Sequence record: PQ571307
DNA: 64,000 nucleotides
Source: Shigella phage SF1-1
Strand: one strand, 5' to 3'
The first letter of the stretch is position 1; each line of letters opens with the position of its first letter. The notes beneath the pieces are model-generated. The model worked only from the letters and a program-made list of their open reading frames with translations, did not search any database and was not told where the DNA came from. This document shows positions 37,447-37,920 of the stretch, piece by piece. A program made the translations under genes and the position numbers.

Positions 37447-37920
37447 ATGCTTAAAATGAAAACAGGTAATCTTATTGATGCCGCTAAAGCAGGTGAAGTA
37501 ACTGTTATTGCTCATTGTTGCAATTGTATGTGTAATATGGGGGCAGGAATTGCTCCGCAAATTAAACGAGCATTTCCTTACGCATATGCAGCAGACTTAG
37601 ACACAATGGCTGGTGATCAAAGTAAACTAGGTTGTTTTAGTTTAGGGGTGCCAGACGAACAATCAGACCCTTTGGTATATAATCTATACGGGCAATACCG
37701 TTACGGATACAATGCTAAAGGTCGTCAGTTGGACTATGATGCACTTTACGATGCACTAATAGCTATGGCTAACGATTTGCTTCTCCGTGACCAAAAATGT
37801 AAGATCGGCTTACCTATGATTGGCGCTGGATATGCTGGAGGTAATTGGGCTATCATCCAAGTGATGATTGAAGAAACTTTAGTAAAAACAGGTCACGATG
37901 TGACTATTTATAAACTTTAA
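37447..37920 (+). CDS. TARG1/OARD1-like macro domain protein (ADP-ribose processing)
   Basis: VIAHCCNCMCNMGAGIA and LPMIGAGYAGGNW...VMIEET....DVTIYKL closely parallel human TARG1 (SLAHCISEDCRMGAGIA ... MPRIGCGLDRLQWENV..MIEEVF..TDIKITVYTL). Confidence 0.75.
   Translation: MLKMKTGNLIDAAKAGEVTVIAHCCNCMCNMGAGIAPQIKRAFPYAYAADLDTMAGDQSKLGCFSLGVPDEQSDPLVYNLYGQYRYGYNAKGRQLDYDALYDALIAMANDLLLRDQKCKIGLPMIGAGYAGGNWAIIQVMIEETLVKTGHDVTIYKL

Follow-up and report, generated by a model that had tools for sequence, protein, structure and literature searches.

Several macrodomain enzymes close to the one considered here have been described. SCO6735 carries Gln85 at the Lys position, where it is essential and is held in place by Asn27; a G128E mutant has reduced activity, and a mobile loop five residues longer than that of TARG1 or DarG is the hallmark of its subclass (PMC9411070). 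Among SCO6735, DarG and TARG1, it is SCO6735 that hydrolyses the ADP-ribosylated thymidine (dT-ADPr) made by DarT fastest, and it rescues E. coli as well as Streptomyces from DarT (PMC9411070). In phage T4, tk.4 was the sole gene whose disruption made the phage sensitive to DarTG2, a result with which a clean knockout agrees, and the gene has been named adfM (10.1101/2025.11.20.689424). The NARP1-AP operon of Vibrio phage Gary has its macro gene, Adpp, flanked by Adps and Namat, and the product of this gene converts ADP-ribose-1''-phosphate, the product of the aRES defence, into ADP-ribose (ADPR), letting NARP1 rebuild NAD+; all three genes are required against aRES, and Adpp alone gives no NAD+ recovery (10.64898/2026.01.28.702374). 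Another macrodomain named AdfM, of the Lys type, shields chimalliviruses from DarTG2 (PMC13309987). Here we describe a macrodomain gene at positions 37447..37920 of a 64,000-nucleotide stretch of Shigella phage SF1-1 (PQ571307), the whole of which is called the window below; the gene is a further member of a phage family with functions published in 2025-2026, and not a new kind of system.

Judged from sequence and predicted fold, the product of this gene (the macro protein) would be a stand-alone, catalytically competent macrodomain hydrolase with a SCO6735-type site, belonging to the same family as T4 Tk.4 (AdfM). It is very probably an active ADP-ribose C1''-hydrolase that counters host immunity based on ADP-ribose or NAD, and this broader claim is much the safer one. 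The narrower reading that we favour, namely that of an orphan DarG-like antitoxin stripping DarT2 adducts from phage DNA, is in our estimate evenly poised between right and wrong.

Fold and active site of the macro protein

The open reading frame (ORF) runs on the + strand from an ATG at 37447 to a TAA stop at 37918-37920. The upstream phosphoribosyltransferase (PRTase) gene has its stop at 37431-37433, and the ATG of the macro gene is placed 14 bases past the end of that gene. An alternative 179-residue reading from an ATG at 37381 was discarded, as it runs into the PRTase gene upstream and lacks a ribosome-binding site. For phage nieznany, the nearest relative, RefSeq gives the identical 474-nt coding sequence as gp175, labelled 'phosphatase'; the two genes are separated by 7 synonymous and 2 non-synonymous differences, with a ratio of non-synonymous to synonymous substitution rates (dN/dS) of ~0.075. 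The macro ORF is a real gene under purifying selection. The window itself belongs to a phAPEC8-like myovirus of the genus Phapecoctavirus, subfamily Stephanstirmvirinae: over positions 35000-40000 it shares 97.7% identity with Klebsiella phage ZCKP1 and 97.6% with Escherichia phage nieznany, and at least 80% of this 5-kb stretch is present in 68 records.

By profile search, the macro protein matches Pfam Macro (PF01661) with an E-value of 7e-5 and 23.1 bits, barely above the 22-bit cut-off, and phrog_335 ('phosphatase') of PHROG with an E-value of 7.5e-54. When the sequences of the PDB were searched with phmmer, the best match was SCO6735 (5e3b, E 9e-13), followed by BT1257 (2fg1, E 9e-9), both of which outscore TARG1 (E 2.4e-6, residues 19-157); T. 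aquaticus DarG (E 3e-6), Poa1p (2e-3) and M. tuberculosis DarG (0.017) were found in the same search. The first conserved block, HCCNCMCNMGAGIA, is aligned to HCISEDCRMGAGIA of TARG1, and the second, LPMIGAGYAGGNW, to MPRIGCGLDRLQW. An AlphaFold2 model prepared with 61 homologues as input has a predicted local distance difference test score (pLDDT) of 94.2 and a predicted template modelling score (pTM) of 0.91, and a Foldseek search with this model ranked TARG1 (4j5s) first (E 1.7e-11, template modelling (TM) scores 0.80/0.89, 24% identity). Both ADP-ribose-binding motifs of the class are kept, the N-terminal Asn motif (N26) and the Gly-rich diphosphate loop (G126/G128/G132). On the predicted model, the protein is confidently assigned to the macro fold of the ALC1-like class, which comprises TARG1, DarG, SCO6735 and Poa1p.

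The active site differs from that of TARG1. In the HMMER alignment, the position of TARG1 Lys84 (DarG Lys80) is occupied by Gln83, and that of TARG1 Asp125 by Ala130, which rules out Lys/Asp catalysis of the TARG1 type. By alignment to 5e3b, the site is instead of the SCO6735 type, with Gln83 and Asn26 matching Q85 and N27. The mobile loop Q83-Y97 aligns without a gap to 5e3b and 2fg1, and is five residues longer than those of TARG1 and T2 Tk.4. In an alignment of 61 homologues, from which all of our conservation counts were taken, H23, N26, G126 and G132 are invariant (61/61), Gln83 and G128 are each kept in 60 of the 61, and A130 in 57; Gln is also present at this site in T2 Tk.4, in the Adpp of phage Achelous, and in 05F01, KB57 and SPA01.

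A preliminary description, made from the letters alone, had proposed a TARG1/DarG-type macro domain alignable to human TARG1 over both conserved blocks. At the class level this was borne out by the fold, phmmer and Foldseek, the alignment to TARG1 being confirmed by its phmmer E-value and the macro fold by a confident structure prediction. The same description would have counted itself refuted if the equivalents of the catalytic Lys and Asp were missing. They are indeed missing; however, this is not a sign of inactivity, because SCO6735 with the same Gln is active.

Phage relatives and the likely substrate

Using tblastn, homologues were found in 2,927 of 50,697 phage records, in lineages that include the Tevenvirinae (tk.4), Felix O1-like phages, Vequintavirinae, Pakpunavirus and T5-like Vibrio phages; the tk.4 genes of T4, T2 and RB43 are among the matches. 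T2 Tk.4 is 36% identical to the macro protein (E 7e-21, 70.5 bits), and in our own alignment has Asn and Gln at the active site, not the Lys of DarG. Achelous gp176, which is 98.7% identical to Gary Adpp and lies in the same three-gene order as in Gary, is 40% identical to the macro protein over the full length (E 3e-35, 107 bits). Tk.4 and Adpp share 35% identity with each other. The macro protein, Tk.4 and Adpp thus form one family of roughly equidistant members (35-40% identity) with the same Gln-type site. AdfM and Adpp could not be separated by nearest solved structure, pairwise scores or motif positions, as all three proteins match the same PDB set.

We favour action against DarT2 because SCO6735, also without the Lys/Asp pair, removes the dT-ADPr made by DarT; because the homologue Tk.4 is required by T4 against DarTG2; because H23, N26, Q83, G126 and G128 are kept and are invariant or nearly so among the homologues; and because of the low dN/dS given above. 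The lack of a NARP1 partner, the NADAR gene carried by this phage, and the direct adjacency of NADAR and macro genes in other phage contigs, all treated below, also speak for it. The preliminary description had likewise suggested that a phage copy could reverse DarT-type modification by the host, an idea that the tested homologue T4 Tk.4/AdfM backs. In the mechanism that we propose, host DarTG2 would fire and DarT2 would attach ADP-ribose to thymidines in single-stranded phage DNA. Asn26 and Gln83 of the macro protein would position the distal ribose while the Gly-rich loop 126-132 would hold the diphosphate, and the enzyme would cut the bond between thymine N3 and ribose C1'', releasing free ADP-ribose; with the adduct removed, the template could be replicated again. 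The equivalent removal of DarT1 guanine adducts would fall to the product of a separate NADAR gene of this phage. For this phage, both the substrate and the counter-defence phenotype are inferred.

Phage T5 offers a further comparison, being DarTG2-sensitive (10.1101/2025.11.20.689424). No homologue of the macro family or of the window NADAR was found in positions 1-100,000 of T5, a stretch that covers all but its last 21.7 kb. The sensitivity of T5, together with the lack of such a macro gene in this stretch, is consistent with the anti-DarT2 reading. T5 also carries two Sir2-like genes, T5.102 and T5.105.

Several points weigh against the favoured reading. The T4 Tk.4 evidence is genetic only, comes from a preprint, and does not extend to removal of ADP-ribose from DNA (10.1101/2025.11.20.689424), and we found no published data on the macro protein of any Phapecoctavirus or other member of the Stephanstirmvirinae. 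The lysines with which SCO6735 holds DNA, K34 and K89, correspond to Ala33 and Gly87 in the macro protein; the basic residues R85, K91 and R93 are present in the same mobile loop. The macro protein is also slightly closer to Adpp (40%, 107 bits) than to Tk.4 (36%, 70.5 bits), and its nearest relatives outside the subfamily lie no more than two genes from a Namat-like gene, in 'NAD islands'. These relatives, 47-54% identical, are found in metagenomic phage contigs. The island order is NUDIX, Glu_synthase-like, NAMPT-like, NADAR, Macro, HAD_SAK_2, SIR2, Prs, PhyH and Thg1, and it is conserved in five such contigs (L013, L017, L018, L019 and L021), in two of which (L017 and L021) NADAR directly adjoins Macro. 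The two proximities point in different directions: that of Macro to NADAR fits a pair of DNA erasers, and that of Macro to the Namat-like gene fits NARP1-AP.

The main rival reading, which we regard as distinctly less likely than the favoured one, is that the macro protein is an Adpp-type enzyme that dephosphorylates the ADP-ribose-1''-phosphate generated when RES-domain (aRES) proteins phosphorolyse NAD+, possibly besides de-ADP-ribosylating DNA. Gary Adpp carries out this conversion and is needed by NARP1-AP to overcome aRES; its near-identical counterpart Achelous gp176 shares the 40% full-length identity with the macro protein; other homologues are located near Namat and Prs genes, both in SPA01 and in the metagenomic NAD islands; and aRES systems are known in E. 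coli and Klebsiella. However, neither Adps nor Namat was found by tblastn with Achelous and SPA01 queries (the latter Prs and Namat-like) in the window and the other 100 kb of the nearest complete genome, the best E-value being 0.14, and NARP1 genes are likewise not annotated in that genome. An Adpp role would therefore be without its partner in this phage. Without NARP1, production of ADP-ribose fails to rebuild NAD+, and all three genes are needed according to the aRES authors; moreover, in T4, which also lacks NARP1, a member of the family works against DarTG2. The preliminary description was incomplete in this respect, having overlooked Adpp and with it the second function tested in the family, as an ADP-ribose-1''-phosphate phosphatase.

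A different ADP-ribose conjugate is an improbable substrate, whether it be Asp/Glu-linked protein ADP-ribosylation, ADP-ribosylated RNA, the O-acetyl-ADP-ribose of a phage Sir2, or an immune signal such as His-ADPR. TARG1 and SCO6735 also cut Glu/Asp-linked ADP-ribose on proteins, yet SCO6735 strongly prefers DNA over its protein substrate (PMC9411070). The deposited PDB name of TARG1 is O-acetyl-ADP-ribose deacetylase 1, a Sir2 gene (gp071) is present in the closest complete genome, and SIR2 recurs in the NAD islands that bear homologues; but the Sir2 gene lies ~44 kb away in nieznany, outside the window, and T5 with its two Sir2 genes yielded no macro-family member in the 100 kb scanned. His-ADPR is bound by macro domains in ThsA of type II Thoeris. 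In phage infection, none of the homologues is known to act on any of these other conjugates.

Neighbouring genes and the NADAR companion

The features of the window that bear on the macro gene are collected in Table 1.

Table 1. Positions in the window of the macro gene, its active-site elements and neighbouring features
Feature	Position	Strand	Remarks
NADAR-domain gene, 180 aa	18069..18611	-	Pfam NADAR E 1.8e-35
ORF, 201 aa	35350-35955		No assigned family
HAD-family hydrolase	35957..36613	+	phrog_14393; weak Pfam and NCBIfam HAD matches
ComF-like PRTase (Pfam PRTase_3)	36606..37433	+	Pfam E 2.2e-41
Shine-Dalgarno AAGGAG	37435..37440	+	6 nt 5' of ATG 37447; read straight from the sequence
Macrodomain gene, phrog_335 family, ALC1-like/SCO6735-type	37447..37920	+	157 aa plus stop
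Codons H23-C24-C25-N26	37513..37524	+	H23, N26 = SCO6735 H24, N27; N27 = DarG N22
Codon CAA, Gln83	37693..37695	+	Site of TARG1 Lys84, DarG Lys80, SCO6735 Gln85
Mobile loop Q83-Y97	37693..37737	+	Length equal to SCO6735, BT1257
Phosphate-binding loop G126-A-G128-Y-A130-G-G132-N-W134	37822..37848	+	A130 at TARG1 Asp125 site
Membrane protein, 73 aa, two transmembrane segments	37933-38154	+	Directly 3' of macro gene
TerC/Alx membrane protein	38236..39210	+	TIGR03718 E 2.6e-95; Pfam TerC
Terminator-like hairpin	39217-39234		After TerC/Alx gene
SprT-like	40836-41426	+
TelA	41423-42535	+	PF05816 E 3e-33

The NADAR protein of the window is 59% identical (E 3e-69) to bas62_0106 of phage Bas62, annotated 'YbiA-like' and belonging to the AdfN-Bas60 group. 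AdfN-Bas60 of Bas60, Bas61 and Bas62 counters DarTG1 (PMC11825919). The window NADAR is thus likely to be an AdfN-type anti-DarTG1 factor directed against the guanine-ADPr made by DarT1, and together with the macro protein it may form a pair of DNA-ADPr erasers, one guanine-specific and one thymine-specific, that would parallel AdfN and AdfM of T4.

Closer to the macro gene, the + strand genes from 35957 to 42535 appear to belong to an abbreviated Ter cluster. Abbreviated Ter systems with PRTase, HAD, TerC and TelA have been described in jumbo phages and some smaller ones by Iyer, Aravind and colleagues, who predicted that the PRTase and HAD of Ter systems make a nucleoside-like signal (PMC7824862). 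Justusliebigvirus and related metagenomic contigs have the Ter-like set in the same order.

A pathway shared with these neighbours, in which the macro protein would act on a ribosyl or nucleoside-like metabolite of the adjacent ComF-like PRTase and HAD (with TerC and TelA), had been raised by the preliminary description, and we consider it very unlikely. The order HAD-PRTase-macro, with tight or overlapping junctions, is kept in Phapecoctavirus, in Justusliebigvirus Bas62 and in related metagenomic contigs (L014 and L015 among them), all of which alike have TerC and TelA downstream, and in Ter systems the PRTase and HAD together are predicted to be the module for a nucleoside signal (PMC7824862). 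Yet the HAD-PRTase pair, which occurs in 156 phage records and is paired in them without exception, can stand without a macro gene within 4 kb, as in Rhizobium phage TM30, where a NUDIX gene takes its place, and in Xanthomonas phage XaC1; conversely, nearly all of the ~2,900 records with the macro family are without PRTase_3. Even members of the subfamily do not always keep the genes adjacent: three genes intervene in 05F01 and a single one in L020. Since the distributions of the PRTase-HAD pair and of the macro gene across lineages are uncoupled, the adjacency reflects shared descent. Processing of PRTase/HAD products by the macro protein is thus unsupported, each occurring without the other in other phage lineages, and a shared pathway finds no support outside this phage subfamily. 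Equally remote in our estimate is a scenario in which the Stephanstirmvirinae macro protein was recruited from NARP1 to the conserved neighbouring PRTase, the atypical HAD and the 201-residue protein, within the TerC/TelA cluster, forming a new route of ADP-ribose/NAD salvage or signalling that replaces Adps and Namat.

Some observations concern the neighbours themselves. Motif I of the HAD protein reads F-D-V-W-N-T, in which Trp stands in for the second Asp, the residue that usually serves HAD phosphatases as general acid/base; its best NCBIfam matches, to the REG-2-like, CTE7 and type II dehalogenase subfamilies, fall far short of the cut-offs, and from its sequence it is possibly not a standard phosphatase. 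PDB sequence searches with the PRTase, the HAD and the 201-residue ORF were uninformative, and a promoter scan gave no excess over shuffled sequence. The gene for the 73-residue protein is 82% identical at the DNA level to that of nieznany, as against 98% in its flanks, with a synonymous rate (dS) of 0.67 as against ~0.07, which marks 37933-38154 as a local hot spot for divergence or exchange. The nrdD gene (32848-34662) is unbroken in the window. In nieznany, it carries a ~780-bp insertion (L001 9950-10729) at the point that corresponds to about 33719-33730 of the window, inside which is an ORF for an HNH-type homing endonuclease, and the annotated nrdD is cut into two. In Bas62, bas62_0068 (L012 5833-6567) is annotated as a 244-residue 'putative macrodomain protein' that overlaps the PRTase gene; similarity to the macro protein begins only at about L012 6118, and the start codon as deposited probably lies too far upstream.

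Comparison with described systems

In the phrog_335 family, present in ~2,900 genomes, two different roles have been tested, that of AdfM against DarTG2 and that of Adpp against aRES, and both go with one Gln-type site; members without NARP1, such as the present one, offer a natural way to tell a bifunctional family from one with diverged specificity. Phapecoctaviruses are phage-therapy candidates against E. coli and Klebsiella, and the likely anti-DarTG2 (macro) and likely anti-DarTG1 (NADAR) enzymes would help to predict host range on DarTG strains. The main points of interest are the SCO6735-like Gln chemistry in both tested phage homologues, and the pairing of NADAR with a macro gene in a therapy-relevant genus.

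Among the described proteins, human TARG1 (OARD1) is the top Foldseek match and has a nearly identical 'C.MGAGIA' loop, but both its Lys84 and its Asp125 are missing in the macro protein, the loop of which is five residues longer. The DarG2 macrodomains of T. aquaticus and M. tuberculosis and PhiKZ gp104 (AdfM) share the removal of dT-ADPr proposed here, and PhiKZ AdfM is a precedent for the use of orphan macrodomains against dT-ADPr by phages (PMC13309987). They differ in that DarG (K80) and PhiKZ AdfM (K78) have a catalytic Lys where the macro protein has Gln (PMC13309987). PhiKZ AdfM acts in a phage-nucleus setting, which has no counterpart here, and DarG has a C-terminal DarT-binding domain, whereas the macro protein corresponds to the macro half only and has no adjacent darT. 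Identity with DarG was accordingly rejected: the macro protein matches only positions 1-144 of the 329 of the PADLOC DarG profile, scores 34.6 bits with the NCBIfam DarG equivalog, for which the cut-off is 250, and has as neighbours PRTase_3 and the 73-residue membrane protein, with no darT.

Gary Adpp, as read from the Achelous protein, resembles the macro protein in its Gln-type site and long loop. Unlike the macro protein, it is flanked by, and works with, Adps and Namat, neither of which was found by tblastn in the window or in the rest of the nearest genome; membership of NARP1-AP was rejected for this phage on that ground. T4 Tk.4 (AdfM) differs in a mobile loop that is five residues shorter, in reading 'GIGKGNW' where the macro protein has 'GYAGGNW', and in its neighbourhood in the vs/tk region; a phenotype is known for Tk.4 only. 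The two are alike in belonging to the same PHROG-level family, in standing alone at ~155 residues with the Asn and Gln kept, and in being encoded by large lytic coliphages that also carry a NADAR gene, AdfN in the case of T4. SCO6735 and BT1257 are cellular orphans of ~24-28% identity, and K34 and K89 of SCO6735 are unmatched; in the catalytic site, however, they have the same Gln for Lys, the same Ala for the Asp of TARG1, the same long loop, and the equivalents of H24, N27, G126 and G128.
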